Virus record (IMG/VR): IMGVR_UViG_3300044624_003554
Location: 11,566 to 75,565 of that record
Reading direction: 5' to 3' (one strand)
Source of the DNA: a virus
Taxonomy: Duplodnaviria; Caudoviricetes
DNA: 64,000 nt
The number at the start of each line of letters is the position of its first letter. The first letter of the stretch is position 1. Both the position numbers and the translations under genes were made by a program. This document shows, one piece after another, positions 22,275 to 54,129 of this stretch. The notes under the pieces are model-generated. The model was not told the origin of the DNA and did no database searches. It saw only the letters and a program-made list of their open reading frames with translations.

Positions 22275-22279
22275 AAGGC

Positions 22280-23338: not shown

Positions 23339-23343
23339 TTTAT

Positions 23344-24580: not shown

Positions 24581-24581
24581 A

Positions 24582-25286: not shown

Positions 25287-26010
25287 TATATTTAATTAAT
25301 AAAGAATCCCAATCTACATAATTTGAATAAGTGCCAGTGTGTAGATGCGTTACAACGCCTGGAAGAGGAGAGAAACACAACGCTTGATCTCCAAAAATTT
25401 TAGAAAAAATCCCATCATCTCCAACGCCCACACAAGCTTCATTAAAGTGGTTATAAAATTTTTTAAATGTTTTAGCTAAAAACATCATTGTAAAGGTTGT
25501 TGAACTGACTTCTCTCCAATATCCACTTTTGGTTTGAAAAATATAAGATTTTTTTGGCTTTCTATATTGATCTGGATAGTCCGAGGGATGAATGAACCAA
25601 GGAAAATTAAACTGTTTAGAAAATTCTAAAAAATCAAAAACTCTATGAAAATTTTCTGAGTCATGCAAATAGTCGTCTTCAACCATGTATACAAAATCGT
25701 CATCATTAAACGAAATTGCAATTTCGGCGCATTTAATTAGACTACCTAGTCCACCAAGTTTTTCAGTTGAATTTTTTGAATATTTTGGGTTTAATTCATT
25801 TAATAAAAATGACCAAAGCTCTTCAGAAACCATGTCCCCAATTAAATAAAATTCATGTTTAGTTTTTTTTAAACTGTCTTTTAAGGATTTTGCACAAGCT
25901 TTAATTACTTGTGATTTGGACATTCCGTTTGGTCTTGGATTTTCACTTCCATCCAACCCCTTATGCAAGCTATTTATAGCGTCACATACTCTATATATTA
26001 TCTTGATCAC
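25276..26010 (-). CDS. GT-A fold glycosyltransferase (GT2-like)
   Basis: VYMVEDDYLH, STTFTM, GDDG; located in the glycan cluster. GTG start. Confidence 0.65.
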   Translation of the reverse strand: MIKIIYRVCDAINSLHKGLDGSENPRPNGMSKSQVIKACAKSLKDSLKKTKHEFYLIGDMVSEELWSFLLNELNPKYSKNSTEKLGGLGSLIKCAEIAISFNDDDFVYMVEDDYLHDSENFHRVFDFLEFSKQFNFPWFIHPSDYPDQYRKPKKSYIFQTKSGYWREVSSTTFTMMFLAKTFKKFYNHFNEACVGVGDDGIFSKIFGDQALCFSPLPGVVTHLHTGTYSNYVDWDSLLIKYNDK

Positions 26011-26022
26011 TCAGATAATAAT

Positions 26023-27171
26023 CTATTCTTCAATAATTTCTACGGAAGCTAAAGAAGGGTCGAGTTTTAATAATTCTTCTTGAGAAAATTCTTCTTCTCC
26101 ATCCCATTCATATTCATCAGCTTGAGCTTTTTTCCAAGCTTCTGGATCTGGGCGATCTTTATCGCCTAGTTTTGCGGGTTTGTATTTTTTACCCATTCTT
26201 TTTTTCTTTTCTCTGATATTGTCCCAAAGTCCTTTTTTGGCACCCTCGATATCAATTAAATCTTCAATATCTGTTTCTCTGCAACCACATTCACATTCTT
26301 CCGAAGAAGTCATTTTGCTTACTGGAGTTTTACTCCACATTTTACATGACCAATAATTAGCTTTCCATTTAGGTCCAGGGTTATCGCAGCCATGTCTTGA
26401 TCTATACGCTTTTCTGCGATCTGGATCGTCACGTTTAATACTCATGTTTGGATCACCAAACTTAACCATTACAACGTTACCTTTATCGTTTTTAACGTAA
26501 ACTCCAAATTTCTTTTTTGATCCTGAAGGAAGTCTAAACGGCTTGTTTAGTGTCTTACTTTTTTTTTTATCTTCAGCTGAAGATAATTCAAATTCTGAAT
26601 CTGAAAATCCAGCTTCTATGCAGCATAATTTAGCTAATTGAAATTCAATATCCTGAAAATCTGAAAATTCATAGTTTTCAGATAAATCTTGATTATTTAA
26701 AATGTCGCTGTCTGCCTTTGCATATGAAGCTTTTACGTTTTGACCAGATGCCATTTTTAAAAATAAATTTACTCTAGCAAATGCCCATTCATCTTCCGAC
26801 TTTCCAGGTCTAAAAATTTTAGCTGATTCTTCTAAACCTCTTGCGTAAACCTTGAGCAGTTGATCCAACGAAACCAAAAATGGATTATTTCTGCCATTAT
26901 GAGCGGAAACTTTCTTCATCAAAAATGCAACTATTTTATTCTTTTTGCGAGATTTTGCTTCATCTTCTTCCATCTCTCCCTCTTCCTCGGAGTCCTCGGC
27001 TTCTTCTTCGTCGCTATCTTCCTCTTCCTCGCACTCGCATTCAGACATTGATTTATTGCATTCGGAACATGTTTTTTCAATTTTGTCCTCGGCAGTAATA
27101 GTAGAATTAACTGCAGCCAAGTCTTTTGACTTTAAAAGTTCTTTAATTTTTTCAGAAAAATCGAGTTCCAT
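26023..27171 (-). CDS. Modular acidic/basic hypothetical protein (possible virion-internal protein)
   Basis: Acidic tract plus three short basic modules (RPG...EWAFARVNLF; KFGDPNM...RHGC...YWSCKMW; GLWDNIREKKKR). Confidence 0.55.
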   Translation of the reverse strand: MELDFSEKIKELLKSKDLAAVNSTITAEDKIEKTCSECNKSMSECECEEEEDSDEEEAEDSEEEGEMEEDEAKSRKKNKIVAFLMKKVSAHNGRNNPFLVSLDQLLKVYARGLEESAKIFRPGKSEDEWAFARVNLFLKMASGQNVKASYAKADSDILNNQDLSENYEFSDFQDIEFQLAKLCCIEAGFSDSEFELSSAEDKKKSKTLNKPFRLPSGSKKKFGVYVKNDKGNVVMVKFGDPNMSIKRDDPDRRKAYRSRHGCDNPGPKWKANYWSCKMWSKTPVSKMTSSEECECGCRETDIEDLIDIEGAKKGLWDNIREKKKRMGKKYKPAKLGDKDRPDPEAWKKAQADEYEWDGEEEFSQEELLKLDPSLASVEIIEE

Positions 27172-27182
27172 TTGTTCATTAA

Positions 27183-27188
27183 TTACAC
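27183..27188 (-). promoter_or_regulatory. GTGTAA motif
   Basis: 11 nt before ATG 27171. Confidence 0.5.
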
Positions 27189-27214
27189 AAAGAAATTAAT
27201 TTTTTGAAAAAAAA

Positions 27215-28861
27215 TTATCCTTCGCAAGATTTACATCCAAGTATGGATCTGGCTAATTCCTGTGCTGGATTAGCGCTTCTTTGATAATAAAGAGACTTTA
27301 TCCCTTGCTCCCAAGCAAAGATCATTAAATCACTTACGTCTTTTGGCTTCGTGTCTGGAGGAATATGAATATTTAAACTTTGTCCTTGGTCAATATGTTT
27401 TTGTCTTTGAGCCGCTTGAATGATTATTTCCTTCTGGGAAATTTCACCAAACGTTTTAAATACATCTTTTTGATCTTGGGTCAAGAAATCAAGGTGCTGA
27501 ACACTTCCAGCTTTTTGAAGAATAGAATCCCAAACTTCTGGCGTATCTTTTTCTATCGATGCAAGAAATTTTTTAAGGCTTGGATTTTTGTAAGTTGATC
27601 TTGTTTTTGCTAAATCTTTAATAAAATAATTATCTTTCAATGGTTCTATGCTTGGAGAAACTTGTCCCAAAATAAATGAACTTGAAACAGTTGGGGCTAC
27701 AGCAAGCAGCGTGGTATTCCTCCTTCCATAGCCCTTTAATAAATCTGGCTCACCAATAATGTCAGCTAAAAGTTTGCTTGCCTGCAAAGCTTTTTCTTTT
27801 ATAATTTTCCATATCTGAGAGTTAAGCATTTTTGCTTCAAACGATTCAAATGCAATCATATGATCTTGAAGATATGTACTCCAACCTAATCCACCAAGTC
27901 CCAAGGCTCTATGTCGGATAGAAAAATTTCTAGCTGCCTCCATATATTTCATGCCTTTCGTTTTATTAATAAATTCAGTCATTACTGTATCAAGGAAGTA
28001 AATCATTACTTCGACAGCATCGGTATCTTTCCATTCATCCCATTTAGCTAAATTCATGGAAGACAAACAGCATACAAAAGATTCCTCTTCATTATTTGGA
28101 AGCATTATTTCTGAACAAAGATTGCTATGCTTTATTTTTAAATTTTTATCTTTATAAACGTCTGGAGCTTGATTATTTGCATTGTCAGAAAAAAAGATAT
28201 AAGGATAACCGCTGGCATATTTTTTCTTAATAACTTTTCCCCATAAGGATCTTTTCTCCTTGTCTCCAGCTGTCATTGCTTTCATCCATTCATCAGAAAT
28301 GCAAACTCCTATTGAAATATCTTGAACTATAGAACCTTCATCTTTAATTCTTAAAAATTCTTCAATATCTGGATGTTCAATTGGAAGATAAGCAGCAAAA
28401 CTTCCTCTTCTTGTGTTGCCTTGCGATATGACATTTGTGTTCGTTTCGAACATTTTCATGAAGTGAACTGATCCAGACGTTTCACCTCCGCTTGAAATTT
28501 TTGCACCCCTTGGCCTTAAGTTGCCAAAATAACCGCTTGTTCCGCCTCCCATTTGAGACATCTTCCCAACCTCCGCCGCCTTTCCCAAAATGCTATCCAT
28601 TGTGTCTTCGACAAAAGAACCAAAACAAGAAATCGGAAGTCCTCTTTTTCTGCCATAGTTAGACCATACTGGAGAACTTAAAGAATAAAAGCCGTTTTTT
28701 AAATGGGTCAAAAATTTTTCCTTAAACTCTATTTCTGGTAAATAATTTTGAGCTGTTTCGGCAATTTCTTCAATTCTCTCCTCTGCACTCTCCCCTTCTA
28801 ACAAATAACCTTTACTTAAAAAATTGCGTGATTCTTTATTTAACCAGTATATATTTGACAT
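27215..28861 (-). CDS. nrdA: Ribonucleotide reductase class I alpha subunit, short, no ATP cone
   Basis: ISCF, GGGTSG, SNLCSEI, CCLSS, RALGLG, APTVSSS, SLYY, terminal CKSC. Confidence 0.93.
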   Translation of the reverse strand: MSNIYWLNKESRNFLSKGYLLEGESAEERIEEIAETAQNYLPEIEFKEKFLTHLKNGFYSLSSPVWSNYGRKRGLPISCFGSFVEDTMDSILGKAAEVGKMSQMGGGTSGYFGNLRPRGAKISSGGETSGSVHFMKMFETNTNVISQGNTRRGSFAAYLPIEHPDIEEFLRIKDEGSIVQDISIGVCISDEWMKAMTAGDKEKRSLWGKVIKKKYASGYPYIFFSDNANNQAPDVYKDKNLKIKHSNLCSEIMLPNNEEESFVCCLSSMNLAKWDEWKDTDAVEVMIYFLDTVMTEFINKTKGMKYMEAARNFSIRHRALGLGGLGWSTYLQDHMIAFESFEAKMLNSQIWKIIKEKALQASKLLADIIGEPDLLKGYGRRNTTLLAVAPTVSSSFILGQVSPSIEPLKDNYFIKDLAKTRSTYKNPSLKKFLASIEKDTPEVWDSILQKAGSVQHLDFLTQDQKDVFKTFGEISQKEIIIQAAQRQKHIDQGQSLNIHIPPDTKPKDVSDLMIFAWEQGIKSLYYQRSANPAQELARSILGCKSCEG

Positions 28862-39605: not shown

Positions 39606-40622
39606 TTATACTATATAATAATAATCCAAATTATCTATGTTATCAATAAATATATTTGGACTTGGTTCTTCAATTAATTCCATTTCAATAGAATGGCAAT
39701 TTTCATATTTAAAAACATGAGTCCATCTTGTGCATATAAAAACTTTACTTGCTTTTAAAAAAAATGGATACTCATATATGAATCTCCTATAGCCGCATTT
39801 TTTTTCTAAAAAGAAAATAATTGACCTACACTCAATATCATCTATATTTTCAAATTTTAAAGATATTTTTTTTAATGCGTTTGAATTATTTTTATGTTTT
39901 ATCGTTTGTATAAATGAATTTTTAAAATCCATTTTATAAAAATCTAATTGATTTGAAAGCTCAAAGGGAAGCTTATGGTCATGATTAAAGTTTTTAGTCC
40001 AATTCTGCAGTGAAAATGCCGTATTTTGAGCTATGTCATTTTTTGCAAACCAAAAATTATCTATTTTATTTCCAGTGTAATTTTTGGCATTTGCGATAGA
40101 ATTTGGATCTATATATACGAATTGATGTCTTTTATAAGATTTTTCTTGATCAAATAACGTATCAGACGAAGTTACATTTGATAAGATTGAACTAGTTCTC
40201 CAATTTAAAAGCGGAGCTTTTATGTAAGAAAGTAAAGATACATTTAATTCATTTAAATTATTTCCTCCAGAATTTTTATTTATAGAATAAGCTTCAATTA
40301 CCCCAATTATATCTTTATAAAAATCAGAAGGATCTTTAAATTTTAAATTTTTATAACCTCCAGCAACTTCTATTGTTTTGAGTAAATTTCCAGCATCATT
40401 ATCGTTTAGTAGAAATTTAAATGAATAATTTATTGTTATATTATTTTCCGAAGCAGGTAGTATTTTTAAAGAATTGTCAACAGTTTCTAGGAAATTTAAT
40501 CTTGAAGAAAATGATACAGAAGATCCATAAATAGGTTTGTATACACTTAAATCATTTATATAAGTGTACGAATCGCTTACAGAAGAATCTCTGTTATAAA
40601 GAAATGGATTATTATAAGCCAT
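39606..40622 (-). CDS. Distal tail protein (lambda gpM/Dit-like), internally duplicated
   Basis: Two similar halves (YSFKFL...LKFKDP; ISLKFE...IIFFLEKKCGYRRFIYEYP...FICTRW...IEMELIE) in the usual position downstream of the tape measure. Confidence 0.6.
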   Translation of the reverse strand: MAYNNPFLYNRDSSVSDSYTYINDLSVYKPIYGSSVSFSSRLNFLETVDNSLKILPASENNITINYSFKFLLNDNDAGNLLKTIEVAGGYKNLKFKDPSDFYKDIIGVIEAYSINKNSGGNNLNELNVSLLSYIKAPLLNWRTSSILSNVTSSDTLFDQEKSYKRHQFVYIDPNSIANAKNYTGNKIDNFWFAKNDIAQNTAFSLQNWTKNFNHDHKLPFELSNQLDFYKMDFKNSFIQTIKHKNNSNALKKISLKFENIDDIECRSIIFFLEKKCGYRRFIYEYPFFLKASKVFICTRWTHVFKYENCHSIEMELIEEPSPNIFIDNIDNLDYYYIV

Positions 40623-41427
40623 AAAATCCTAAAAAGTCGTGTTTAACATCAAGGGTATTTTGGCTTGCAATTGAAACTGTAGAATTTATTAATTTAGATT
40701 TTCTTATTGGCAATTTAAAAAAAGAAGACGATCCAGAGACAATGATATCAAAATCTCTAAACCCATCGTCATTTTTTGAAAAATCAATTTCTTTTGAATT
40801 GTTTGGAATTTTTGAACTTAAAGAAATTTGTATTTGTAATGGCAAAATCGGACAAACTTCAGTCGGCTCTTTTTGTCCAACAGAATAATATGGTTGCCTA
40901 TTAATTGTTAAGCTGTAATTAAAACCATATATATTGTATTTTTCCTTTAGATTTTGATCATAAAGTCCAGATATGCTTATTGAATTTAATTTTGGAATAT
41001 CTAGTGGTTTAGAATTAATTGATCCTCCATCAAAAAATTCAATTTGTTTTAAATCAGATCCATATGATATGAATTCGGTGGAAATTTTAGGCAAATCTCC
41101 AACAGAAAAAGATGCGGAATAAGTTTTTAAAAAAAGATTTGTAATTGAATAGTAATTGTTTCCATCATATATTCTAAATTCTCTTACTGGATTTAATCCA
41201 GTATAATCAAACATGTTGTCATAATTAACAAAACTTCTATTAATTAAAACCTGTATTTCCTCTGGAGCATTTACGCTATAGGCGGCGTCAATTCCACCCA
41301 ATGAAAAATGTTGATCATAAGATAAATTTTTTTGTAAATTTAAATCATTAATTCCATCTAATTCGTAGAATGAATCTCCAGCAATTCCAGACAAGTAATA
41401 TAGTTTATAAATTGATGAGTCTATCAT
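40612..41427 (-). CDS. Tail-tube-fold paralogue following the tape measure
   Basis: NLFLKTYSASFSVGDLPKISTEF and FNYSLTINRQPYYSVG...LPLQIQISLS match tube-protein motifs. Confidence 0.55.
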   Translation of the reverse strand: MIDSSIYKLYYLSGIAGDSFYELDGINDLNLQKNLSYDQHFSLGGIDAAYSVNAPEEIQVLINRSFVNYDNMFDYTGLNPVREFRIYDGNNYYSITNLFLKTYSASFSVGDLPKISTEFISYGSDLKQIEFFDGGSINSKPLDIPKLNSISISGLYDQNLKEKYNIYGFNYSLTINRQPYYSVGQKEPTEVCPILPLQIQISLSSKIPNNSKEIDFSKNDDGFRDFDIIVSGSSSFFKLPIRKSKLINSTVSIASQNTLDVKHDFLGFYGL

Positions 41428-44400
41428 TATCTTAACATGCCCCCTAATCTTCTCTCATCTTTTAAAACAGTTAAAACTACTTCTTTTATTCTCCTTGCCA
41501 ATTCTTTATTTTGTTGATCTTGTCTTGAGTCGCTATTTTGATTTTCTGTTTTTTCTCCTTTTCCATCAGAATTTACAGATATATTAATTGTTCCAACACC
41601 AGCTATTTTCTCTACAAGTTCTTCCAATTTAGCTTCTATTCTTGATGCCATTTCTCCAGTATTGCCAGATATTTCGCCAGTTGAATTTAATTTTTGTAAA
41701 TTTCCATAGCCAGTTTTTTGTGCAGCTTGTTTAGAAACAACAAATTCTCCACCATTTAACATTGCTGGAACATTATCACCCATTCCATTGCCAGCTACAT
41801 ATCCGCCAGCAGCTCTTCTGACTACTGGAATTGCCATCGGCGCAGTTCTGCCATTATATACAGACCTGTTTCTTCCATAAAATGAATCAAAATAAGTTCC
41901 AGAATTTAATGCAGTAGGAGTTCCTAGTTTATCATAGGATGCGCCTAATGGAAATTGAGCATTGTAGGTATCCATACTCATTCTTGAATATGAATTTGTT
42001 TTATTGTTCCAGCTATACAATCCGCCACCTTGTTGACCTAAAGCGCCAGCTCCAATTGTTGAGAAATCCTTGGTTGCAGAACTGTTGAAAATATTTGCCA
42101 ATCCACCTCTACTTTCGCCGCCAAAAGATCCTCCTGTAAATGCTCCCGTAAATTTTTCTCCAAATGTCGCCGTCCTACCTTGTAAAGCTGCTGCTTGTTT
42201 GGTTGCACTTACACCTTTAGACATTGCGCTTCCAGCATAACTAACTCCAGCCATTATAGCTGTTGTTGCTAATTGGGTGACTAATGCTCTCTGAGCTTGT
42301 TTTTTAGCTTCTTTTTTAGCTTTTTCCCATTCTTCCATTTGTCTCTTGTATTCTTTTTCATTTTCAAAATCCATTCTTATCTTATCTTTGGAAGTTTGAT
42401 AATCTTGAAAGTATAAATCTAAAGCTTTATTTTTGGATTCTAAGTATTGAGTATTTCTAACGTTGCCTTGATCGCGAAGAGCAAATAATGAAAGATTTCC
42501 ACTTCCTCCAGCAATGTCAATTGAAGCAGAGTTGCCAGATGATGAAATTTTATCGTATTGAGTACCAACTGTTTCTTGAGTCGCAAATGAAAGTAAATTT
42601 TTCTGTCCAATTATTGCTCCTTGACCATAGCTTCCAGGCATGAAGAAGCCATTCTGTCCAGTCTGTTGATTTTGGTTATAAAAATTTGTTTGAGCCTTTA
42701 ACAATGCATCTTGCTTATCTTCTTCTTTTCCTTGATAATTTTCAATACCAGTCACCTTTCCGCTTTGATCGAATGAAAGACCAGCCATTCTATTCTCGCC
42801 ATAAGTAGTATATTTGTTTGGATTTCTGATTAAATCATTCAAATCAGTCTCTTGCATTCCATATGGCATGACTGGTCCACCAGCGGCAAAACCTTTCAAT
42901 TTTCCAGAATTAAGTTTTTCAAAAAAATCTTTTCCATATTTATTTACAACATCTTTTCTAATAACGTATTCGCCACCCATTAACATTGCTGGTACATCAT
43001 CTTTAACTCCAGAACCGCCTTCAATTTCGCCTCCAGAAGCAAAACCAAGCGCTCCAGCAAGACCAGTTCCAGCTTGACCATTTCCAAAAATACCACTAGT
43101 AATTCTATTCGCTGCGTTAGTCATTAATGCTTCATTGATTTTATTTACGAACGCTGAAGCGACACCCATTAATCTTTCTCCTAAAGACGCAGTAGAACTT
43201 GGATCTGACAAAACCCTCATTGCATCAACTAGTCCATTTCTGAAATCTGTTGGAATTTGTTTTCCAAGTTTTCCTTGGAATTTAGTAATTTCGTCATCTA
43301 TATCTCTTAATCCAGAGCGAAATCCCTTTCCGAATTGTTCCTCTTGCGCAAATCTTTCATTAACTGTTCTTGTTTTATTCAAAGCAAGTTGATTTATATT
43401 TTGAGCTCTATCTACAAACGGAAGCGGTTGATCTTGATTAAATACTAAGGATGCATTTTTTTGAGAAAATTTATCTTTTTCTTGTTGAGCTTTTTCTTTT
43501 AAAGCTAAAGTTAACTCTTCTATTTTTATTGGTAATTCTTCCGTATATTTTAGGATCGCTTCTTGATCTGCGCTTATGGGTCCAGTTTGATTTTTTATTA
43601 TTTCAGCTTGTGGAGATAATGCATTAAAATCTTCCCTATATTTTTCTAGTTCAGCTTTCTTTAAAGAAAATTTTAACTCTTCATTTCTTGAATTACTTTG
43701 AACTTTATCTATTGGAGATGGAAAGGCTTTTCCTTCTTCTGTTGTTTTACTGCCAAAGCCTAAAGTTTTTAAATCTAAACCTTCAGGTTTAGATTCATTT
43801 TGCGCTATTTTCTTTCCTGTGACGAAAGATGCTCCAGCACCTAATATAATCTGTCTAAATTCTTTTGCCGCTTCTACTACTTGTTCTGCAAATGGATCTT
43901 TTTCCAATCCATACATTTTGTCTATGTTTCTATCTTCAATTGATTTGAGTATTTCTGGTCCTGTTTTTTCTCCTGTTAAAAAGCTATTTATTTCTGAAAG
44001 AGACGCGCCTCTAGACTGCAAAGTTTTGATTCCAGCTTGTCTGGACTGCAATGATCTTTCTTGCATTCTATCGGTATTTTCCTGCAATCCTCTTGTTCTT
44101 TCTTCTCCGATATTTCTATATGCAGCAGATTTTTCTGCTTGATATGGACTTAGTTGCGTTTGATAAAATTCAAATGCAGAATCTCTTAATTTTTGCTGCC
44201 AATCTCTTTCTTCTTTTCTGAGGTCGATTGCTTTTTGTGCATTTGTAATTTCCGCAGCTGTTAATTCTAATTTCCTATCTAATGCTCTTTTTTCTTGTGC
44301 AAAAATTAATTGCTTAATTGTTTGTTCTGTTTGAGCATTGATTAAAGCTTTAGGATCTTGAACAAAAGTTTGGCCAATCATTAGATTTGGAGCAGCAGCA

Positions 44401-47400
44401 GCACGAGCGGGAAGTCCAGATTCAGTTCTAGCGCTAGTAGGCAATTCTTCTTTAAAAACTCTACCTGCGGCAATTCGCGCTGCTGGTGTAACAGCGCCAG
44501 AACGCTCTATTTGATTAAAATAATCATTTGATGATTCAAATCCTTTTGCAATATTAATTTGAGCTTGAATATCTGATTCAGAAACCGAATTTAGTATTTT
44601 AAATATTTCTTCTCCAACCGCCTTTCCTGCTTCTTGCGCTTTAATAAAGAATGCATCTCCAGCTTTAATAACCCTATCATTTATACTTTGGGCTTCTTTA
44701 TCCAGAACTGTTTGAAGCGCTTGTTCTAAAGATTGATAATCTTGGGCTTCTGTTATTTTTTGAACATCGCTTGCATTTGCTCCTCTTTGAAAGGCAATGT
44801 TTAATGCATTTAATCTGTCAGCTAATAATGCTGATTGTCTTTGGATTTGATAATCCTCCATTTGTCTTGGCCCACTTGTAGCCAATGATCTTTCTAGATC
44901 TAATCTTTCTTTTACAGAAGGATCTTGATTTGGCGTTGCCAAGGTTCTGGTTTCGTATTGAATGTCGCTTATTTTTCTAACTATATCTAATCTCTGCCTG
45001 TCTTGATCTAATAATTTTTGATTTATACTTAATCTTGCGGTTAAAGATTCTCTTATAGTTGTTTCTATAAAGTTGTCTTTTGTTGCAATTGCTAATCTTT
45101 GATTTTCTATTAGAATTGCATCTCTTCTTGCAGCTTGTTGGCTACGAGTAAGTTTTTGTGAAAATTCTAACTGCCTAACTTCTTGCTCTAAATAACTTAA
45201 ATATTGTTTTTTTTCAGCACTTAACTCTTTACTTCCGTTAACTGAAGATTTTATCGCTTTGACTTCATCTTGTGCAAATTTAATTCTTTGTTCATCAGTA
45301 GTTTGAGGATTGTATACATTTTGTGCAAATTTTTCCATTGCAGCAGTTCTTGTTGTGGCATAGTTTTCTGGCAAAGAAGTGCCTAGTCTTGTTATTGCAG
45401 TATTCTGTATATTTTTTACAAAATCAAAAGCAGCACTTCCAAGCTGTTCGTTTGTTTGTCTTTCTTCCTGCTTTAATCTTAACTCAGCTTCAAGATTTGC
45501 TTTTTCTTGCGCGTTTACTGTTAATAATTCTTTTTTAAGCGCTAGATTGTTTTCTTCTGCAGAAGCATATGAAAGTATAACTTTTTGAAGTTCTCCAAAT
45601 ACATTTATTTGAGCTTTTAAAGTTTCTGCTGGAATTAAAAATGATTCAGCAATAAAAGTTTTTACTAAATTTTCTACTCCAACTTTTTTGGCATTATCTT
45701 GGAAACTTTTTTGCAAATTTCCAAAAAATTTATCAAAATCTATTCTTCCAGAACTCACTTGTTTTGCAACAAATTCTTTTATTTCTTTGTTTGCTTCGTC
45801 TATTGTAAGTTCATTTGCTTTGACTTTTGAATTTATTTTTTCTTTAAAATCTTTAAAAGTTTTAGATTTATCAACTTCTTCAAGCTGCAAATTTAATCTT
45901 GAATTTGTTGGTACATCACTTCTTTTTTGAAACGCTTGCATTTCTGCAAAACTTCCGAATTTTATCATTGATTTGTCTGCAATTTCATTTATTTTTTCTG
46001 CAACCATTTTATCTATTATTTCGGTTTGTGTAATTTTTTTATTGCCTTTTTTTCTTTCTGTTGTAAACTCTCTTTCTGCATCTGGTTGCACCATTTGAGT
46101 CAAACCTGAAAGTATACCTGTATTAACAGAACCCTCTAAACCCAAAGATTCAAGCGCATTTTTTGTTTTTTTAGTTTTATCTAAAGGATTTATATTTTGA
46201 AAATTAAACGTTCTATCAAAAGCTGTCGCAGCTTCAAAAGTTCCAACTTTTTTAACAAATGATTCAGATTTAGCTTTTTGTTCTTCAGTTAAATTTAAAG
46301 TATAGGTTTTTTGGATATCATTCAATCTTCCAAGCGCATCAGCAGTTCGATCTACAGTTTCTCCATATTTTTTATATACGCTATTTCCTATATCAAGAAT
46401 TTTATATGTTGCGTAAATTGCAGCTGCTGGACCAGCTAAACCCGCTGCAATACCACCAATAGCCCCAGAAACACCAACTCCAGCAGTTCCAGCTACTCTT
46501 GAAAAATTTCCAGCTATTGATAAAGAAGATCCTAATGAAGGCGCTCCTTCTCTACCAGCACCACCAAGTCTTAAAGCTTTTCCTACCCCAGAGCTTCTAT
46601 CTTTTGTAAATCCCTCTAATACTTCTTTTCCCTGAGTGAATAACAAAACAACAGAAGAAAGTTCACTTAAAACTTCCGCTGCTACTTTTCCACTTTCTCC
46701 CAAAGAACTTATAGCTCCACTCACTAGTGAAATTGCGCTCTGCCATTTAATTAAAGTATATAAAGAATCTTGTACTGTTTTTGTTTGTTTTTCGTTTGTT
46801 GTTTTTCTATTTTGAGCATCTTTACCTTCTTGAACAGTGTTTTGAGTTGAAGCTTTTGATTCTTTTTGATTTGTATTTGTGACCTCATTTCCACTTGAAG
46901 TAATTTTATCAAAAACTTGATATACAGCTTCTCCACTCACTCCCAAATTTTCAGCAATTTTCTTAAATGCAGTATCAAGATCTGTCGATGAATATTTTAA
47001 ATTCTCAAGAGCTTCTTTTATTGCATTGAATAAATCGCCATTCATTCCAGACGGAGCTGAAAAATTTGGAACTCTACCATCTGGTTCGTCACGATTGTTT
47101 ATGACCGCATATCCGTCTGGATTTTGCGGTCCGCGCACGCGAGCGTCTTGAACGACTTTAATCGCTGACAATGGCAAGCCAGATTCTTTTTGTTCACGAT
47201 CTATTGCATTTAAAATTGCTTGTTTTGAAAAATTTGGAATGTATCCTTTTGCAGCAGTTCTTTCTGGAGCATCTTCTGGCGGCGGACCTTTATACCCATA
47301 CTTCAAAAAGTCTTCCCTTCTTTTCATTTTTTTAGGGAATTTTCTCTTAAGTTCAGCTTCTGTTTTAATCCTATTTAATTCTGCTTCAGGTTCTTGAGCT

Positions 47401-50400
47401 TTTTGCGCAAATTTCAATTGCTCTATTATTTCAAATAGATCTATTCCCTCTGGCATGTTCAATAAATTGCCAATAATATTATTTGTTAATTCTTTTGCAA
47501 TTGGTGAAAACTTTTTCGCACTATCCATTAATTTTTTTATAAATGGATCGTTTCTAGTTACTTCTCCATCACCATCAACATCTTCAGCCGCAAAATTTGG
47601 TACGTATCCTACCGCTGCAGTTTTGCCCACATTTGTACTTCCCATTGTGTCGTACATAGTATGCAAGCCACCTTTGCTGCCAGCAATTCTATTAAATTCT
47701 TCGACATTTAATTTTAAAACTTCTGCATATGGATCTCCACCTTTAAATAATTCTTTAGTTTTCTGTATCAAAAATTTTTGCATTACTTCGTTAACTTTGA
47801 AGTTGCCAGCATAAATATCGTAAAGTCTTATTGAGTCTGGTCCATATTTTTGCTTATAAGCTTTTAAGATATTATCCGCAGCTTTTTGGGCCATAGCTTC
47901 GGATAAACCAAATGCAAACATTTGTTCCTGTGGTTTTTTGCTAAGAGCTTGTGTGACAAACTCATCTACACCAGAACCGCCAACCACCTCACGCTCAAAG
48001 CCAGCAAGTTTAGTTTCGTCACCCGTTTGAGGATATGTTAACAATTTACCAATGTCAGTAAATGAAATTGCATTTTGCTTAAATAAGCTTGAATTTTGTT
48101 TTTCAAATTGTTTCAAAGCTTGATTTACGTTGTATTCTTGTGCAATTTTTTCAGCACCTGGTTTATAGAATATTTTTTGACCCAGTTCGTCTTTAGACTT
48201 TGGAATTAAGAATTTTCCACTTTGACCGCTACCAACTTCTGTAAAATTAGGATCTTCATAAAGCATTCCAACTCCCTTGCCCATCAGCTGCTTTGTGTCA
48301 GAAAAATTTGGAATAAAACCTTCTACCGCAGTTTTTGCAACATCATAAGTTTGAAGCGACTTTTCAAAATTAATATTCTCCCAATCAGAAACTCCAAAAT
48401 CTCTTAAAGTCTCTAAAATAGTTCTGAGATTTTGAAACTCAGCTTGGTTTGCAACAACCATTTTCTTTTTAATTTTATCGTAAGTAAAATTAGATTTTAT
48501 TTTTTTTGCAAGAAATGGATTTTTTTCAGATAATTTATTTAATTTGTTTTCAATTCCATATTCGCCTTTCCAGCCTGTAATGAATGCGGTGCTTGTTCTA
48601 CCATATTTATCTTCTTTGGTTTTTTCATAAGAACCATATGGATATTCACTTTTTTCAATTATTGAAAGAACGTCAGAAGCATTAAATTTAGTTTTATAGA
48701 ACGTAGAATCTTCTCCTTCAGATGGACGTTTTTTAGGATCTTTTAATACAATTCTATCCAATTTAGATTTACCAACTCTTTTGAGTTTATCTGGAGTTTC
48801 AAGAGGCATGACAAATCTCCTTTCCTCTTGAAGCTTGTCAACTTTTAATTTATCTGGAGCAAGTAAATTTCCGTATTGATCTATGTCAACACTTTTTCCT
48901 AAAGCTAAAAATTCTGCATCGTCTCGACCTATTGTAGTCATTATAGCAGATATTTTAGTTTTTAATCTTTTTGTTAGTTCGTCTATGACTACTGGTCTAA
49001 ATTGAGTAACTAGTTTTGATATTTTACTTTCTTCACTTGGAGCATTGATTGAACGAACTCCAGCGCTGGCTTTTGTTTGATATATTTGAGCCCAAACATC
49101 TTGCATGTTTCTATTTTTAGCAATAATGTCAAATATTTGACCTAATTTTTCATACTTTAATTCCCTTGCAAAACCACTAACCTCTCCAGTTACGACTTTA
49201 TTTTCATCTGTTTTAATTTCTGGCATTTCGCCAAAAGCAGTTTTGTTAGTTTTGCCAGTTTTATAATTTGCAAATGCTGACATTAACCTTCCATAATAAG
49301 CTTTATCAAGATTTCCATCGCTACCAACTAAATGATAATTTGGCCCTAAAATAGAAGCCGCCATATCATTTTTAATTTTATTAATGTCTAAATTTTCATT
49401 GTTTTTTGTTCCAGCTAAATCAGTTGTATATGTTTCGTCACCGCCAAGTCTATACTTTAACTGTTCAAGAGTAGCTGTTTTCACCCTATCACCAAAAGTC
49501 ATTAATGGTGCATTTTTTAGTTCTTTTATTGCAAAATTGGGAACGTAACCTTCGGATGCAATGAAGGCCGAATCACTAGGTAAAACTAAATTAATTGTCT
49601 TTAAATCAATTTCATCTTTTTTTGGTTTTTTCCCAACTCCATTATTTGCAATATTATTTTTAGGTTGGTTGCTTAACCAATTATTCACTCCCTTTCTTAA
49701 AACATCGAAAGCTGATTGTTTCGCTCTCGTTCTTACTTCTGTTTGATTTGGCAAATCAAAATAAGAATTTCCAGATGTTAAATTTTTCTTTAACGCTTTG
49801 GAGGCAGCTATTTCTCCGATAACTCCCTGAATTCTAAATTTTAAAGCTTTAAATTTATCACTATAATCTTTTTTGTTTTTAGGATCTACAGTTTGATACA
49901 GAGACTCAATTGCGGATAGCGAAGATCGATCAACGCCAGCTTTACTCCATTCAGTAAAATACTCATCTTTTATTTGGGAATTTTTATATCCATTCTTTTT
50001 ATTTCCAATTAATCTTTTTGCAATTCTGTCAGATTCAGATCTGAAAAAACCAATAGTCTGATCTTGTTTTTCTTCATTTTTTCCTAATCTTTTAACTTTG
50101 ATTCTTGCTTTAAATTCATCAAATGGGTCTGCATATTTTGCATTTTTTAAATTTTTAAAATCTCCAACTTGTTGTTTTTTAATTGTGGATTCTATTGCAA
50201 AATTTGGAATATAACCCTGAGAGGCAGTTTTTATTTTTTCCTGCGGATTTACTTTAACTTGAGCTAGAAGTTTAGCCTTTAAAGATTCTCCACCATTCTC
50301 AGAAAGCTGTTGTATGAATTTTGTACCAAGTTCGTCATTAAGAGCTTTTTCTGAGGATTTAATTTCGACATACTCCCAAAACTTTTTCGGCAATCCATAT

Positions 50401-52862
50401 TGTTCTGCAATGTCTGGCTTTAATCCATATATGTCAAATCTACTATTTGAATCATTAAAGAATTGACCAAAATTATCATCTTCTGCAGACATGTTTGCCA
50501 TTTTAAGCATTGTCTCGAAAAATGTTCCCGCCATGCTGTCGTTAACGAAATCGAATTTTCTTCCACTTTTCATCAAATACTGCATTGTTGCAGTCGGCTT
50601 TATGCCCAAAGAACTCAATTCATCTTTTATGAAAGTTCCAATTTGAGGACTTAATGCGTCATTTGCTTTTTTGATAAAGTGATTTTTAATGTCTTGTTCA
50701 CTTGCCTCAAGTGAGTCTAAATTTTCATCGCGCCTTCTATAAATATTTCCAACATCTACGTTTGAGAAATTAAGTTTGCTATAATTTGATAATGCGTTTG
50801 ATAAAGCTGGATCTTTTATTTGAGAAAGAATTTGCGGCGTTATTTCTTTCGACCTGACAGCCTTCCTTCCAGTTCCACCTATCGTTAACCCAGCAAACGA
50901 ATAAGAACCTCCATCAATAGTTAAACTCTTTAATAGATTTTCTTTTTGCTTTTCTTTTTCTTTTTCCTCTGCAAAATTTGGAACATATCCAAGGGCCGAA
51001 AATAAAGTTGGTTTTCCAGTTCTTGTTTTTGAATAAGAAGGCACAACGAAATCACCCATCGGAGTTTTGTATACAGACTCCATTGAGTTAACTATCATTG
51101 TTCCCCTGCCTTCTGTTGGGCCAAAATTAAAATTTGAAATTTCTTTTATTGAAGCTCCCGCTGGGGCTTCTTGCATTTCCATTTTTCTAGCAACATCTTT
51201 AGGCATATATCCACCAGCAGCAGTTTTTGCTTTGACATTTTTCGTTCCTTCTTCAGTTAATCTAATTCCACCTTCATAAACTGATGGTCCAATGTCTTTA
51301 CTTAATTTAGACATTTTTTCCAAGGTCGCGGCTTGTTTTGAATACAAACTTAAAAGATATTCAGCCTGTGCGGTTTTATTGCCTTCTAAAGAAACAATTT
51401 TACTTTGAACCGCTGTATTTTGAAGCAATAAACCCAGTATAGATTTTTCTATATCTTGTTGTTCTTTTTTAACATTAGTTACGCCGAGTTGATTCTTTAA
51501 ACTGTCAACTCCAAATTTAGCAAGATCGCCAAAAAGCTTAATACCAAGACCAGCAATTAAAAGAGCACCTGGACCTGTGATAACTGCACCTATTCCCTTA
51601 ACAATTGCCTTTCCAATTGTTGCGCCACCTTCTTCTCCACCAGAAATACTTTCATTTAAAGATTCGAGAAAAGAAGAGGTCTTATTTAAAATAGATCTAA
51701 AATCATCTGAAAAAGCAACCTTGCCAATCGTTGCGGCAAATTGAGTTCCAGAGGTCGTTAATCTATCAAACGAAGCCTGAACTGTTTTATTTAATTCATC
51801 TAGCTTTTTAAAACCTTGATTGCCTGCGTTTGTCGATTGTTCTAAACTTCTATTAAATGTGCCATTAGCGTTTGATATATCATTAAGAAGTGCAGCTAAT
51901 TTATCAATTTGAAAACCGCCACCGATTTTTATTAAAAGACCTTTTCTTGTTGCAGAATCTAAGTTTTGAAATTCGTCTGCAAGTTTTTTAATGATTGTTG
52001 TAGCTGGAAGAATGTCGCCACTAGCATCATTTACTGCAATACCTAAATTTCTAATATAATCAAGATTTTCAGTAGTCTGAACTCTTTGGAAAATTGTTTT
52101 TAAAGCGTTACCGATAACAGCTCCACCACGTGCAGTTTTTTCTTGCAATGTGGTAATTAAAGCTGTTAATTCATCAAATGAAACTCCAGCTTCTTGAGCT
52201 ACGGAAGCTGAACGGGAAATACCCTCAATTAAATCTCTTGAACTAACTGCAAATTTAGTATCAACTGCAGCTAATTTATTTACGACAGTTTCGTAATCTA
52301 AGCCAACTTGATTAAATGACAAAACAGCAGCAGTAAGACCCTTTACCGCCTCTGCCGCATCTAAACCAGTTGTTCTAGTTAATACTAATGCTGCCTTTGC
52401 TTTCATCAAGGAATCTTCTAGAGTTCCGCCTTGACGAGCAAATTCCAACGTAGCCTCAGACGCTTGCTTGAAGGATAGTCCAGTTGATCTCGCGACTTCA
52501 AATATTCCCTTACCAAGTCTTTCTAGATTTCCACTAGTTTCTCCAGTAGCTACTTGAATTTCTTTGAGAGAAGCTTCTACTTGAGTACTGGCAGTAATTA
52601 TGTTTTGAAAACTTTTTGCTACAGCATTTAATACTCCAACGGATGCGCCGAACGCGAGTACGCGAGCATTCGCAGCCTCCATTGATTTGGAAAATTCATC
52701 AGCTTGTCCAGTAATTCTGCCAAGCGGAGCACTTATCTTTTCAAGACCTTTTGAATCAATAGTTGGACGAATTACGACAGTAGCTTTACGCGCAGCGTTA
52801 GCTATCTGCGATTCCATTTGCGTTGTGTCCGCTCCTACTGATAAACGAATATCTTCTGCCAT
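41427..52862 (-). CDS. Giant tape measure protein (3811 aa) with an internal cassette array
   Basis: N-terminal TP901-type tape measure domain (LEFARQG...VVNKLAAVD...GGAVIGNALKTIF), coiled-coil regions, seven GxxPNF(A/S) motifs, two FAxGG..DxVPAMLxGGE modules. Confidence 0.9.
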   Translation of the reverse strand: MAEDIRLSVGADTTQMESQIANAARKATVVIRPTIDSKGLEKISAPLGRITGQADEFSKSMEAANARVLAFGASVGVLNAVAKSFQNIITASTQVEASLKEIQVATGETSGNLERLGKGIFEVARSTGLSFKQASEATLEFARQGGTLEDSLMKAKAALVLTRTTGLDAAEAVKGLTAAVLSFNQVGLDYETVVNKLAAVDTKFAVSSRDLIEGISRSASVAQEAGVSFDELTALITTLQEKTARGGAVIGNALKTIFQRVQTTENLDYIRNLGIAVNDASGDILPATTIIKKLADEFQNLDSATRKGLLIKIGGGFQIDKLAALLNDISNANGTFNRSLEQSTNAGNQGFKKLDELNKTVQASFDRLTTSGTQFAATIGKVAFSDDFRSILNKTSSFLESLNESISGGEEGGATIGKAIVKGIGAVITGPGALLIAGLGIKLFGDLAKFGVDSLKNQLGVTNVKKEQQDIEKSILGLLLQNTAVQSKIVSLEGNKTAQAEYLLSLYSKQAATLEKMSKLSKDIGPSVYEGGIRLTEEGTKNVKAKTAAGGYMPKDVARKMEMQEAPAGASIKEISNFNFGPTEGRGTMIVNSMESVYKTPMGDFVVPSYSKTRTGKPTLFSALGYVPNFAEEKEKEKQKENLLKSLTIDGGSYSFAGLTIGGTGRKAVRSKEITPQILSQIKDPALSNALSNYSKLNFSNVDVGNIYRRRDENLDSLEASEQDIKNHFIKKANDALSPQIGTFIKDELSSLGIKPTATMQYLMKSGRKFDFVNDSMAGTFFETMLKMANMSAEDDNFGQFFNDSNSRFDIYGLKPDIAEQYGLPKKFWEYVEIKSSEKALNDELGTKFIQQLSENGGESLKAKLLAQVKVNPQEKIKTASQGYIPNFAIESTIKKQQVGDFKNLKNAKYADPFDEFKARIKVKRLGKNEEKQDQTIGFFRSESDRIAKRLIGNKKNGYKNSQIKDEYFTEWSKAGVDRSSLSAIESLYQTVDPKNKKDYSDKFKALKFRIQGVIGEIAASKALKKNLTSGNSYFDLPNQTEVRTRAKQSAFDVLRKGVNNWLSNQPKNNIANNGVGKKPKKDEIDLKTINLVLPSDSAFIASEGYVPNFAIKELKNAPLMTFGDRVKTATLEQLKYRLGGDETYTTDLAGTKNNENLDINKIKNDMAASILGPNYHLVGSDGNLDKAYYGRLMSAFANYKTGKTNKTAFGEMPEIKTDENKVVTGEVSGFARELKYEKLGQIFDIIAKNRNMQDVWAQIYQTKASAGVRSINAPSEESKISKLVTQFRPVVIDELTKRLKTKISAIMTTIGRDDAEFLALGKSVDIDQYGNLLAPDKLKVDKLQEERRFVMPLETPDKLKRVGKSKLDRIVLKDPKKRPSEGEDSTFYKTKFNASDVLSIIEKSEYPYGSYEKTKEDKYGRTSTAFITGWKGEYGIENKLNKLSEKNPFLAKKIKSNFTYDKIKKKMVVANQAEFQNLRTILETLRDFGVSDWENINFEKSLQTYDVAKTAVEGFIPNFSDTKQLMGKGVGMLYEDPNFTEVGSGQSGKFLIPKSKDELGQKIFYKPGAEKIAQEYNVNQALKQFEKQNSSLFKQNAISFTDIGKLLTYPQTGDETKLAGFEREVVGGSGVDEFVTQALSKKPQEQMFAFGLSEAMAQKAADNILKAYKQKYGPDSIRLYDIYAGNFKVNEVMQKFLIQKTKELFKGGDPYAEVLKLNVEEFNRIAGSKGGLHTMYDTMGSTNVGKTAAVGYVPNFAAEDVDGDGEVTRNDPFIKKLMDSAKKFSPIAKELTNNIIGNLLNMPEGIDLFEIIEQLKFAQKAQEPEAELNRIKTEAELKRKFPKKMKRREDFLKYGYKGPPPEDAPERTAAKGYIPNFSKQAILNAIDREQKESGLPLSAIKVVQDARVRGPQNPDGYAVINNRDEPDGRVPNFSAPSGMNGDLFNAIKEALENLKYSSTDLDTAFKKIAENLGVSGEAVYQVFDKITSSGNEVTNTNQKESKASTQNTVQEGKDAQNRKTTNEKQTKTVQDSLYTLIKWQSAISLVSGAISSLGESGKVAAEVLSELSSVVLLFTQGKEVLEGFTKDRSSGVGKALRLGGAGREGAPSLGSSLSIAGNFSRVAGTAGVGVSGAIGGIAAGLAGPAAAIYATYKILDIGNSVYKKYGETVDRTADALGRLNDIQKTYTLNLTEEQKAKSESFVKKVGTFEAATAFDRTFNFQNINPLDKTKKTKNALESLGLEGSVNTGILSGLTQMVQPDAEREFTTERKKGNKKITQTEIIDKMVAEKINEIADKSMIKFGSFAEMQAFQKRSDVPTNSRLNLQLEEVDKSKTFKDFKEKINSKVKANELTIDEANKEIKEFVAKQVSSGRIDFDKFFGNLQKSFQDNAKKVGVENLVKTFIAESFLIPAETLKAQINVFGELQKVILSYASAEENNLALKKELLTVNAQEKANLEAELRLKQEERQTNEQLGSAAFDFVKNIQNTAITRLGTSLPENYATTRTAAMEKFAQNVYNPQTTDEQRIKFAQDEVKAIKSSVNGSKELSAEKKQYLSYLEQEVRQLEFSQKLTRSQQAARRDAILIENQRLAIATKDNFIETTIRESLTARLSINQKLLDQDRQRLDIVRKISDIQYETRTLATPNQDPSVKERLDLERSLATSGPRQMEDYQIQRQSALLADRLNALNIAFQRGANASDVQKITEAQDYQSLEQALQTVLDKEAQSINDRVIKAGDAFFIKAQEAGKAVGEEIFKILNSVSESDIQAQINIAKGFESSNDYFNQIERSGAVTPAARIAAGRVFKEELPTSARTESGLPARAAAAPNLMIGQTFVQDPKALINAQTEQTIKQLIFAQEKRALDRKLELTAAEITNAQKAIDLRKEERDWQQKLRDSAFEFYQTQLSPYQAEKSAAYRNIGEERTRGLQENTDRMQERSLQSRQAGIKTLQSRGASLSEINSFLTGEKTGPEILKSIEDRNIDKMYGLEKDPFAEQVVEAAKEFRQIILGAGASFVTGKKIAQNESKPEGLDLKTLGFGSKTTEEGKAFPSPIDKVQSNSRNEELKFSLKKAELEKYREDFNALSPQAEIIKNQTGPISADQEAILKYTEELPIKIEELTLALKEKAQQEKDKFSQKNASLVFNQDQPLPFVDRAQNINQLALNKTRTVNERFAQEEQFGKGFRSGLRDIDDEITKFQGKLGKQIPTDFRNGLVDAMRVLSDPSSTASLGERLMGVASAFVNKINEALMTNAANRITSGIFGNGQAGTGLAGALGFASGGEIEGGSGVKDDVPAMLMGGEYVIRKDVVNKYGKDFFEKLNSGKLKGFAAGGPVMPYGMQETDLNDLIRNPNKYTTYGENRMAGLSFDQSGKVTGIENYQGKEEDKQDALLKAQTNFYNQNQQTGQNGFFMPGSYGQGAIIGQKNLLSFATQETVGTQYDKISSSGNSASIDIAGGSGNLSLFALRDQGNVRNTQYLESKNKALDLYFQDYQTSKDKIRMDFENEKEYKRQMEEWEKAKKEAKKQAQRALVTQLATTAIMAGVSYAGSAMSKGVSATKQAAALQGRTATFGEKFTGAFTGGSFGGESRGGLANIFNSSATKDFSTIGAGALGQQGGGLYSWNNKTNSYSRMSMDTYNAQFPLGASYDKLGTPTALNSGTYFDSFYGRNRSVYNGRTAPMAIPVVRRAAGGYVAGNGMGDNVPAMLNGGEFVVSKQAAQKTGYGNLQKLNSTGEISGNTGEMASRIEAKLEELVEKIAGVGTINISVNSDGKGEKTENQNSDSRQDQQNKELARRIKEVVLTVLKDERRLGGMLR

Positions 52863-52953: not shown

Positions 52954-54129
52954 TTAGTAACCCCATTGACCATCCAATGTATCTGTATATGATCCAGATA
53001 AGTAGATACCATTATTCGTATCTGTTGGGCCACCGACTTGAGTTTGGAAAACAAGATCAACAGTTTTATTTGCTCCGATACTTGATGAGAATGACTCACT
53101 TTGTAATTGAGAACCTTTGAACTTGAAGATGAGTGCTTTTTCTGTTGAGCCAGGCTTGCCAATTGTTAAAGTAATTTCCCTCTTTGAGTTGTCGTCCAAC
53201 ATTTGAGCGACACTCTTGGTTTGAACTTCATTCAATACAGCGCTAACATTCAATGTTGCAACAATTGGGAAATCTACCACCCTAGCAAATGCAAATCTCG
53301 AACCCAATCTTTCAATTGGTGTACGGCTTAATGGGAGAGTGATTGATGCTGTTTGAATATTAATTCCATTAGTTCCTTCAAGAACGGCTATTGGAGCGCC
53401 AGTTGCATTTGCTCCAGTATAGTCACCAAAACTTAATGTGATATCACCTGGACGTAAAGCGGAAACGTATTGAGTTCCTGTTGCCTCAACTGGGCTTGGA
53501 ATTCTTCCAGTAATAGATAATTCTGATCCAGCCACTGGATCAATTGTTGGAGAAAGTACAAAATTTCCAGTAGCCGCGCCACCGTTTGAACCAGTCTTGC
53601 CAAGAATTGCTGAAGATTTGATATTAAGACCTTCGATAGTTACGGAGGCGGTTGGAAGATTTCCAACACTAGCATTAAATGTATAATTACTTAAATAACC
53701 ATTTCCGATAGCAATAGTATTTTTCCCAGAGAGTGCATAATCTCCAGTAAGAGTATTTAGATCAGAACCCTCTTCCGCAGTGATAATGTAAAAATTTTGG
53801 CCGCTTGATCCAGCCATTTGACCAGAAGCAAAGTTAGCTTCTGTAGTATCTCCTTTGACTGTGTTCTGAACGTAAAAACCCAATGCTTTTTCATTATATC
53901 CATCAGTAGGATAATATGTAAAATCTAAAGTTACAGTTGGACTTTTAAGAACCAAAGAGTCAATACGAGCCAATTGACCAAATTGGTTAACGTCTTGACG
54001 TTCAATACTAAAATTGTAATTAGCACTTTGAACTCTTCTTAATTGAGCGTGATCACCACTTGCAGTAGAGTTGATATTCTTACTGACATAAAGGGCTTCA
54101 CTTTGATAAATTACGCGATTACGTGCCAT
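52954..54129 (-). CDS. Major tail tube protein A (391 aa)
   Basis: Upstream of the tape measure and followed by a strong terminator; beta-rich with two internally homologous halves. Confidence 0.7.
   Translation of the reverse strand: MARNRVIYQSEALYVSKNINSTASGDHAQLRRVQSANYNFSIERQDVNQFGQLARIDSLVLKSPTVTLDFTYYPTDGYNEKALGFYVQNTVKGDTTEANFASGQMAGSSGQNFYIITAEEGSDLNTLTGDYALSGKNTIAIGNGYLSNYTFNASVGNLPTASVTIEGLNIKSSAILGKTGSNGGAATGNFVLSPTIDPVAGSELSITGRIPSPVEATGTQYVSALRPGDITLSFGDYTGANATGAPIAVLEGTNGINIQTASITLPLSRTPIERLGSRFAFARVVDFPIVATLNVSAVLNEVQTKSVAQMLDDNSKREITLTIGKPGSTEKALIFKFKGSQLQSESFSSSIGANKTVDLVFQTQVGGPTDTNNGIYLSGSYTDTLDGQWGY

Follow-up and report, generated by a model that had tools for sequence, protein, structure and literature searches.

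A window of 64,000 nucleotides from the IMG/VR record IMGVR_UViG_3300044624_003554, which derives from an uncultured freshwater phage, was analyzed with a focus on the gene of its tape measure protein (TMP). The encoded TMP of 3,811 amino acids contains a row of mutually unrelated modules, termed cassettes here, that are divided from one another by copies of a short junction peptide. Sequence comparison indicates that, among related phages, entire modules have been inserted, lost, exchanged and reordered at the junction peptides. We consider it probable that the array is a peptide-fenced rack of independently folding modules; a use of the peptide as a processing site is proposed more tentatively. 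With such a tail, the phage would probably bring a variable set of pre-made enzymes into its host.

A peptide-delimited module array in a tape measure protein

The TMP open reading frame (ORF) was taken from the ORF list and translations of the window, and its sequence assigns the product to the TP901 family of phage tail TMPs. The TP901-type domain that the initial annotation had placed ahead of the array is a PF10145 (PhageMin_Tail) match with an E-value of 4e-27 and 95.8 bits against a cut-off of 33.2. The N-terminal part also matches several PHROG TMP families, with E-values down to 6e-47. The gene order is that of a TMP gene, which is the largest of the tail module and is followed by distal-tail and fiber genes. 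Downstream are located ORF 39606–40622, with a weak Phage_min_tail match (E-value of 1.8e-4, below the cut-off), and a 1,369-residue ORF with a Laminin_G_3 domain. In an independent freshwater run of 2019 from another study (X12), contigs span each of the seven junctions with the cassettes in unchanged order and with ~ 90–97% likeness, and thus the TMP architecture is not an assembly chimera. The contigs of the runs examined are mostly short, and one joint in run X16 (48224 to 51199), which had only 30 letters on one side at a threshold of 85%, was not used. Metagenomes from 12 studies, sampled in lakes, freshwater and estuaries, contain near-identical DNA.

A regular-expression scan of the TMP located seven copies of G-x-[IV]-P-N-F-[AS] (Table 1), whereas the amino acid composition of the protein predicts 0.005 chance occurrences of G.[IVLM]PNF. 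No copy was found in the six frames of the 64-kb window outside the TMP array. All seven had been listed in the initial annotation, with coordinates correct to within 1 nucleotide and with exact inter-motif spacings of 258, 222, 410, 237, 121 and 56 residues. The degenerate copy that it reported upstream, TAAGGYMP, is present as KTAAGGYMP at residues 546–554. At each junction the peptide takes the extended form (K/R)(T/S)A(A/S)xG(Y/F)(I/V)PNF(A/S) and is situated in a flexible linker. The motif strings were not found in the ~ 8.4 million papers and preprints searched.

A search with residues 540–1960 yielded 40 relative TMPs of 2,236–4,015 residues, with an uneven coverage of 13–86% even at high identity. 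The window TMP and these relatives, 41 long proteins altogether, contain 4–10 motif copies each, solely between residues ~ 500 and 2,300. Cassettes were defined by cutting the 41 TMPs at the motif and clustering the pieces by all-against-all BLAST. The window protein then reads B252-G216-C404-D231-E115-A50, where the numbers are lengths in residues, and the six modules are mutually unrelated. Cassette B comes first in 38 of the 41 TMPs and A comes last in all of them. The second slot is occupied by G, H, I, K, L, O or Ag, or is empty. Cassette C, a single-linkage BLAST cluster with length classes between 309 and 515 residues, occurs in 34 TMPs; the 21 homologues of D are positioned before or after it, so that both C-D and D-C orders are found. 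Cassettes E (16 of 41), J, M and N are optional, and the minimal arrays are B-A, B-C-A and B-E-A. The expectation that cassette number and identity vary while motif and flanks are conserved is therefore borne out across the 41 TMPs and extends to cassette order; the motif, the terminal A domain and a small domain ahead of the first motif, F′, stay.

The identities to the window TMP change from cassette to cassette, a pattern that we read as mosaic. One relative (P0002) matches the N-terminal part, G and C at 98–99% identity, B at 83% and the stretch immediately after the array at 23–31%. A second (P0003) shares 98% identity in D and 84% in C, and a third (P0022) shares 94% in the N-terminal part and 37% in B.

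The C-terminal half of the TMP (41427–47057, minus strand; residues 1936–3811) is largely helical and is mosaic as well, which shows that recombination is not limited to the cassette array. Relatives that are 96–99% identical over the N-terminal 540 residues share 20–36% identity over residues 1936–3200, and three others (P0009, P0010 and P0013) share 70–89% over this same region. The gene calls of P0015 (2,236 residues) and P0030 (2,916 residues) lack the N-terminal part with PF10145. The contig of P0015 has space upstream of the gene call, which begins ~ 30 residues ahead of a junction motif. The two proteins may come from TMP genes that were divided at a junction, or they may be gene-calling artefacts.

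The borders of homology support the motif as a recombination joint of a variable module array, a role that the initial annotation had suggested. Alignment of the gene with three IMG/VR relatives by blastn produced homology blocks that end or begin at residues 889, 1104, 1520, 1747 and 1867. These edges coincide with the motif positions 883–889, 1105, 1515–1521, 1752 and 1873; two further blocks stop 15–19 residues ahead of motif 2. At the protein level, 21 of 32 ends of high-scoring segment pairs (HSPs) within the array are located no more than 10 residues from a motif, compared with 12% for random placement and a maximum of 41% in 10,000 trials, a comparison that is not a strict probability because the sequences are related.

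Breakpoints at the motif would also be expected if it were primarily a DNA-level recombination signal whose translation is incidental. Within the window gene the motif copies indeed have a near-invariant CCA AAT TTT core in common and are linked by exact runs of 6–14 nucleotides. However, the 98 motif instances examined in 20 loci make use of the four codons each for Gly and Pro and of the two codons each for Asn and Phe, and the motif is kept in TMPs that are less than 30% identical elsewhere. With every synonymous codon in use, conservation and constraint apply to the peptide rather than to the DNA. The profile of 699 instances from 204 proteins reads A (60%), A/S (81%), x, G, Y/F (82%), I/V (94%), P, N, F (88%), A/S (82%), in which the search pattern itself imposes G, P and N. 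We disfavor the DNA signal as highly improbable. The motif probably promotes recombination as a by-product of its linker position and of the microhomology of 6–14 nucleotides, rather than as its primary purpose: the junctions are located outside the folds, and recombinants formed there would survive.

Table 1 Features of the TMP gene in the 64-kb window. Residue numbers refer to the TMP; pLDDT, predicted local distance difference test score of the AlphaFold2 models.
Feature	Position	Strand	Residues	Remarks
TMP ORF	41427–52862	-	1–3811	PF10145 and PHROG TMP families
PF10145 PhageMin_Tail domain	51918–52499	-	122–315	Pfam match
Gly-rich hydrophobic, transmembrane-like segment	51507–51611	-	418–452	Kyte-Doolittle
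F′ domain	50991–51230	-	545–624	starts with KTAAGGYMP, ends with degenerate strand FVVPSY; small α+β; pLDDT 68–83
Junction motif 1, GYVPNFA	50970–50990	-	625–631	linker, pLDDT < 50
Cassette B	50217–50969	-	632–882	folded α/β; pLDDT 70–90
Junction motif 2, GYIPNFA	50196–50216	-	883–889	linker, pLDDT < 50; DNA HSP with L002 ends at residue 889
Cassette G	49551–50195	-	890–1104	helical bundle and small sheet; variable slot 2; pLDDT 62–94
Junction motif 3, GYVPNFA	49530–49550	-	1105–1111	DNA HSPs resume at residue 1104
Cassette C	48321–49529	-	1112–1514	largest; partly confident model, pLDDT 26–87; no known family
Junction motif 4, GFIPNFS	48300–48320	-	1515–1521	DNA HSPs end at residue 1520
Cassette D	47610–48299	-	1522–1751	best read as minimal protein-kinase-like; pLDDT 77–97 over most
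Junction motif 5, GYVPNFA	47589–47609	-	1752–1758	pLDDT < 50; DNA HSPs resume at residue 1747
Cassette E	47247–47588	-	1759–1872	helical, optional; pLDDT 51–83
Junction motif 6, GYIPNFS	47226–47246	-	1873–1879	pLDDT < 50; DNA HSP resumes at residue 1867
A domain	47079–47225	-	1880–1928	one helix and two strands; pLDDT 75–90; near-universal terminal module
Junction motif 7, GRVPNFS	47058–47078	-	1929–1935	regular-expression scan
Second Gly/Ala-rich hydrophobic segment, downstream of array	46410–46478	-	2129–2151	Kyte-Doolittle

Folds and putative activities of the modules

Two AlphaFold2 models calculated from curated alignments cover the array, one of residues 1508–1945 (D-E-A) with a mean pLDDT of 70 and one of residues 540–1522 (F′-B-G-C) with a mean pLDDT of 63. 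Two alignments for D were dropped (a depth of 3 over D; D columns filled by non-homologous cassettes). The junction motifs are modeled with pLDDT below 50 between domains of 70–97. Motif 4 is a partial exception, forming a weak strand with pLDDT of ~ 52–57 in the D-E-A model and remaining below 50 in the other. The segments, described initially as mostly unrelated and non-coiled-coil, are unrelated to one another, and B, G and D are modeled as compact domains and not as one continuous helix. The array contains more Pro, Tyr and Phe than the rest of the TMP. It is preceded by a hydrophobic, transmembrane-like segment, detected by a Kyte-Doolittle score above 1.4 in a window of 19 residues. The whole protein contains no Cys and nearly no His or Trp in any region, a composition that might ease unfolded passage through the tail.

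The clearest structural relationship was obtained for cassette D. The 50 top Foldseek matches of its model are all protein kinases, with E-values of 0.02–0.15. A VIA search of 48,161 representative chains, which is independent of Foldseek, returned nearly exclusively kinase-like structures that align with model residues 5–244 and include Bud32, RIO, aminoglycoside and macrolide phosphotransferases, PknB, PknE, WaaP and lanthipeptide kinase domains. The Z scores of 4.5–6.2 are middling, and the weight of the match rests on the uniformity of the list. At least 80% of the 21 D homologues retain four sequence motifs, G.G.SGKF, GQKIFYK, D.YA.NFK.N and HTM.DT, which are candidates for the Gly-rich loop, the β3 Lys, the catalytic D....N and the metal-binding Asp of kinases. 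The uniform list together with these motifs makes a minimal kinase-like domain the best reading of the model.

Cassette B exhibits a PD-(D/E)xK-like signature and may be a nuclease-like domain. The signature comprises Gly779, Glu783, Phe809-Asp810, (D/E)xK at 832–835 in two registers and Lys848, and it was derived from 67 sequences with identities down to 13%. Glu783 is kept in 62 of 65 sequences and Phe809-Asp810 in 65 of 66, while residues 831–835 read YVEIK or ADAKR. In the AlphaFold2 model the signature residues are positioned on a helix-strand-strand stretch. A third activity occurs in relatives, where cassette J is a GNAT domain (PF00583 in P0004, residues 1783–1852, 33.4 bits against a cut-off of 20.7). 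Cassette J was found in two of 15 diverse relatives scanned and is not present in the window TMP. The claim that several segments carry enzyme motifs is supported for some cassettes, D and B being enzyme-like and the GNAT domain occurring in relatives.

Searches with the other modules gave little. The 983-residue F′-B-G-C model matched a mixture of PDB structures in Foldseek with a best E-value of 0.24, and nothing below an E-value of 0.02 in BFVD. In VIA, both in the wide search and in a second look, it produced generic helical-bundle matches to G with Z scores up to 7, and B, C and F′ were outside these matches. The ESM Atlas provided no lead for C or D (scores of 0.75–0.78). In the Pfam scan, PF10145 was the sole family in the window TMP, and PF10145 and GNAT were the families found in the 15 relatives.

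The scarcity of Pfam families among the cassettes would be explained if the array were a length spacer, in which captured, decaying domains serve to extend the ruler and the motif acts as a packing hinge, with no effector function. Such a spacer would agree with the TMP lengths of close relatives, which range from 3,015 to 4,015 residues without compensation, and with the mosaic nature of the helical C-terminal half. However, the catalytic-type residues of B (Glu783, Asp810, (D/E)xK and Lys848) are kept over deep divergence, as are the glycine loop, the Lys of GQKIFYK and the two further motifs of D, and the domains are modeled as compact units rather than extended helices. We regard the spacer as improbable.

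Breadth of the family and its basal form

An exhaustive HMMER search with residues 876–1940 retrieved 165 clusters at an E-value of 1e-3 or better. More than 100 of these match the A domain alone (residues ~ 1865–1939 of the query), near residue 850–1,000 of TMPs that are ~ 1,000–2,500 residues long. The usual pattern in these proteins is three motifs, at residues ~ 630, 900 and 960. Among 190 related TMPs collected, the A profile matches 183, and the B profile converges at 67. The commonest form of the family is F′-B-A, in which three motifs frame one B-type domain and the small A domain. The motif is a standing feature of a large TMP family and is not confined to cassette arrays, which corrects the initial reading.

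The F′ domain is probably an A-like domain, homologous to A. A clean F′ seed aligned with A by hhalign with 88% probability and an E-value of 2.8e-6 over the first 28 columns, and the iterated F′ profile recovered the A region in 138 proteins. It is likely that the array is bracketed by two related small domains, F′ first and A last, each of which opens with the motif. The A domain gave no match to solved structures by sequence, whether as a single sequence or as a profile. In one protein of the family (P0077) there are 12 motifs, nine of which form cassette-free tandem units of ~ 20 residues (residues 985–1216). Each unit consists of the junction motif and ~ 14 further residues, and includes the first turn of the A-domain helix.

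A tblastn search of the array against 50,697 phage records had zero matches, a first scan of genome contigs for cassette B found zero relatives, a scan of viral contigs found three loci only, and DNA patterns for cassette D found one viral and one metagenome locus. A DNA pattern for the A domain identified 14 true giant ORFs with 2–9 motifs in contigs of metagenome-assembled genomes (MAGs) from several phyla, none of them isolates. The MAGs are labeled Flavobacteriaceae (3), Flavobacteriales, Flavobacterium, Crocinitomicaceae, Halobacteriovorax (2), Verrucomicrobiales, Neomarinimicrobiota (2), Cellvibrionales, Saccharibacteria, Thermodesulfobacteriota and Proteobacteria. In many distant TMPs, at MAG loci L006, L009, L011–L013, L015, L016, L018 and L020, a conserved extension, G-x-x-Q-G-I-x-R-x-x-x-M-G-[IV]-[DN], directly follows the A domain, and the next PNF motif occurs only ~ 40 residues later.

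A second motif is present in two copies in the C-terminal part of the window TMP, at 42933–43034 and 41703–41807 (minus strand; residues 3277–3310 and 3686–3720). Its consensus is A-x-G-G-x-[IV]-x-G-x-G-x-x-D-[DN]-VPAML-x-GGE-[YF]-V, and it shares the start A-A/S-G-G-Y with the KTAAGGYMP sequence of F′. Nearly all of the 60-odd aligned relatives keep it. Elsewhere in the window, the region 18562–28861 (minus strand) encodes a DnaB-like helicase, a RecA-like protein, the large subunit of ribonucleotide reductase and a GDP-mannose 4,6-dehydratase (E-value of 1e-106). Most structural genes of the window match no Pfam or PHROG family.

Role of the junction peptide

In the siphophages studied, the TMP precedes the DNA out of the tail and into the envelope, and the modules would travel with it into the host. 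The kinase-like domain and the GNAT domain of the relatives need ATP and acetyl-CoA, respectively, so that at least some modules would have to act in the cytoplasm. The two hydrophobic segments flanking the array would fit a loop that is exposed on one side of a membrane. The chain would stay whole while measuring the tail, and the peptide would then be a maturation or processing site that separates the modules after assembly or on ejection. We propose this processing role tentatively, by analogy with the TMP of phage T5. T5 pb2 is cut after Arg1127, between a hydrophobic stretch and the muralytic domain, and hence between body and enzymatic domain, during tail assembly, and neither part is lost from the tail; lambda gpH undergoes processing as well (PMC10038345).

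Nearly equal in standing to processing is a peptide that is not cut and serves for docking or anchoring. It would pin the non-helical modules to the tail-tube wall, to an assembly chaperone or to neighboring TMP chains, and would leave the modules attached to the TMP channel within the host envelope. An aromatic and hydrophobic motif in a disordered linker with strongly conserved flanks is typical of short linear binding motifs. Directly upstream of the TMP gene, in the place usually taken by a pair of tail assembly chaperones, is the 391-residue ORF 52954–54129 (minus strand), which matched no Pfam or PHROG family and is a candidate partner of the peptide. A tethered enzyme was also proposed by the authors of a study of the Thermus phage P23-45, whose gp96 is a TMP of 5,002 residues with an active virion RNA polymerase as its N-terminal part; they think that the enzyme stays at the TMP pore (PMC10770324). 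Docking is nonetheless opposed by the processing of the T5 and lambda TMPs. It would also require a binding partner, and enzymes with differing targets would all be tied to one membrane site.

Several observations weigh against a rack of modules released by processing, and some of them favor docking. No peptidase family was detected in the TMP, its 15 diverse relatives or 30 window ORFs; distant versions are possible, and the protease may be encoded by the host or by the ~ 11 kb of the contig that are located outside the window. The nine cassette-free tandem repeats of P0077 are explained by a unit of docking or of length no less readily than by a site of cleavage. The degenerate FVVPSY copy forms the last strand of the F′ fold in the model, so that the motif can also be structural. 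Both of these, as well as the protease scans, agree with an uncut peptide. Folded domains of 25–45 kDa, in three copies, do not fit the ~ 4 nm lumen of a tail tube. Furthermore, the kinase match of D reaches Z scores of only 5–6, most cassettes belong to no recognizable family, and MAG bins are no proof of host.

A bolder version of the processing role regards the peptide as a self-contained address or cleavage signal, for example for Asn-dependent self-cleavage at PN|F, and the array as a programmable delivery rack. Asn-dependent self-cleavage occurs in the capsid maturation of some animal viruses. The ruler would be built as one chain and would then free a strain-specific enzyme cocktail (kinase-like, nuclease-like and acetyltransferase) into the cytoplasm ahead of the DNA, with new cargo gained by recombination at the peptide. 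We judge this version rather unlikely, and give a similarly low standing to a role of the peptide other than processing or docking.

To our knowledge, TMPs have been treated as rulers and channel formers that contain at most a wall-degrading motif. The window TMP resembles the TP901-1-type TMPs with embedded enzymes, such as those of T5 (pb2) and of mycobacteriophage TM4, in its N-terminal PF10145 domain, its position in the tail module, its hydrophobic segments and the location of putative enzymes inside the ruler. Whereas those proteins have a single wall-degrading motif or domain in a constant position, the family described here combines as many as ten unrelated modules, exchanged combinatorially between relatives, with a conserved delimiter peptide at each junction and with putative cytoplasm-type enzymes (kinase-like and GNAT). 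P23-45 gp96 is likewise a giant TMP with a cytoplasm-type enzyme, and the packaging of its enzyme part raises a similar question. However, gp96 has a single enzyme fixed at its N-terminus, and the paper reports no delimiter motif or cassette exchange (PMC10770324).

Two further groups of modular proteins are comparable. The polyvalent proteins described by Iyer, Burroughs, Anand, de Souza and Aravind in 2017 are associated with phage heads or conjugation and contain embedded peptidases such as MPTase; TMPs are mentioned zero times in that paper (PMC5512222). They resemble the window TMP in that one virion- or transfer-associated chain holds many unrelated domains, in their mosaic evolution and in the proposal that domains are set free once delivered. 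Polyvalent proteins comprise two to 15 unrelated domains, and the window TMP has six unrelated modules with separate folds. The Pfam scan of the TMP and the 15 relatives revealed none of the polyvalent repertoire or its peptidases (ArdC-N, MPTase and others), of which distant versions are possible. Unlike the window TMP, polyvalent proteins have no common delimiter peptide. In bacterial polymorphic toxins, short conserved motifs such as VENN in CdiA and DPxGL in Rhs mark the border of module exchange, as the junction peptide does, and MARTX toxins carry a strain-variable row of effectors that are freed by an internal cysteine protease. CdiA and Rhs are secreted toxins with one variable tip and MARTX has a built-in protease, whereas in the present case a phage structural protein is the carrier, every junction has the motif and no protease is evident.

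If the proposed rack exists, it would constitute a second route, besides the head-packaged proteins, by which a phage brings pre-made proteins into the cell, and could serve host take-over or counter-defense before any phage gene is expressed. The array raises the physical question of how 150 kDa of foldable domains per chain are stored in and threaded through the tail tube. Its short conserved peptide makes the role directly testable by virion mass spectrometry and point mutants, and the array offers a natural modular scaffold for protein delivery. Self-cleavage of the peptide, if true, would affect the TMPs of a very large group of aquatic phages.

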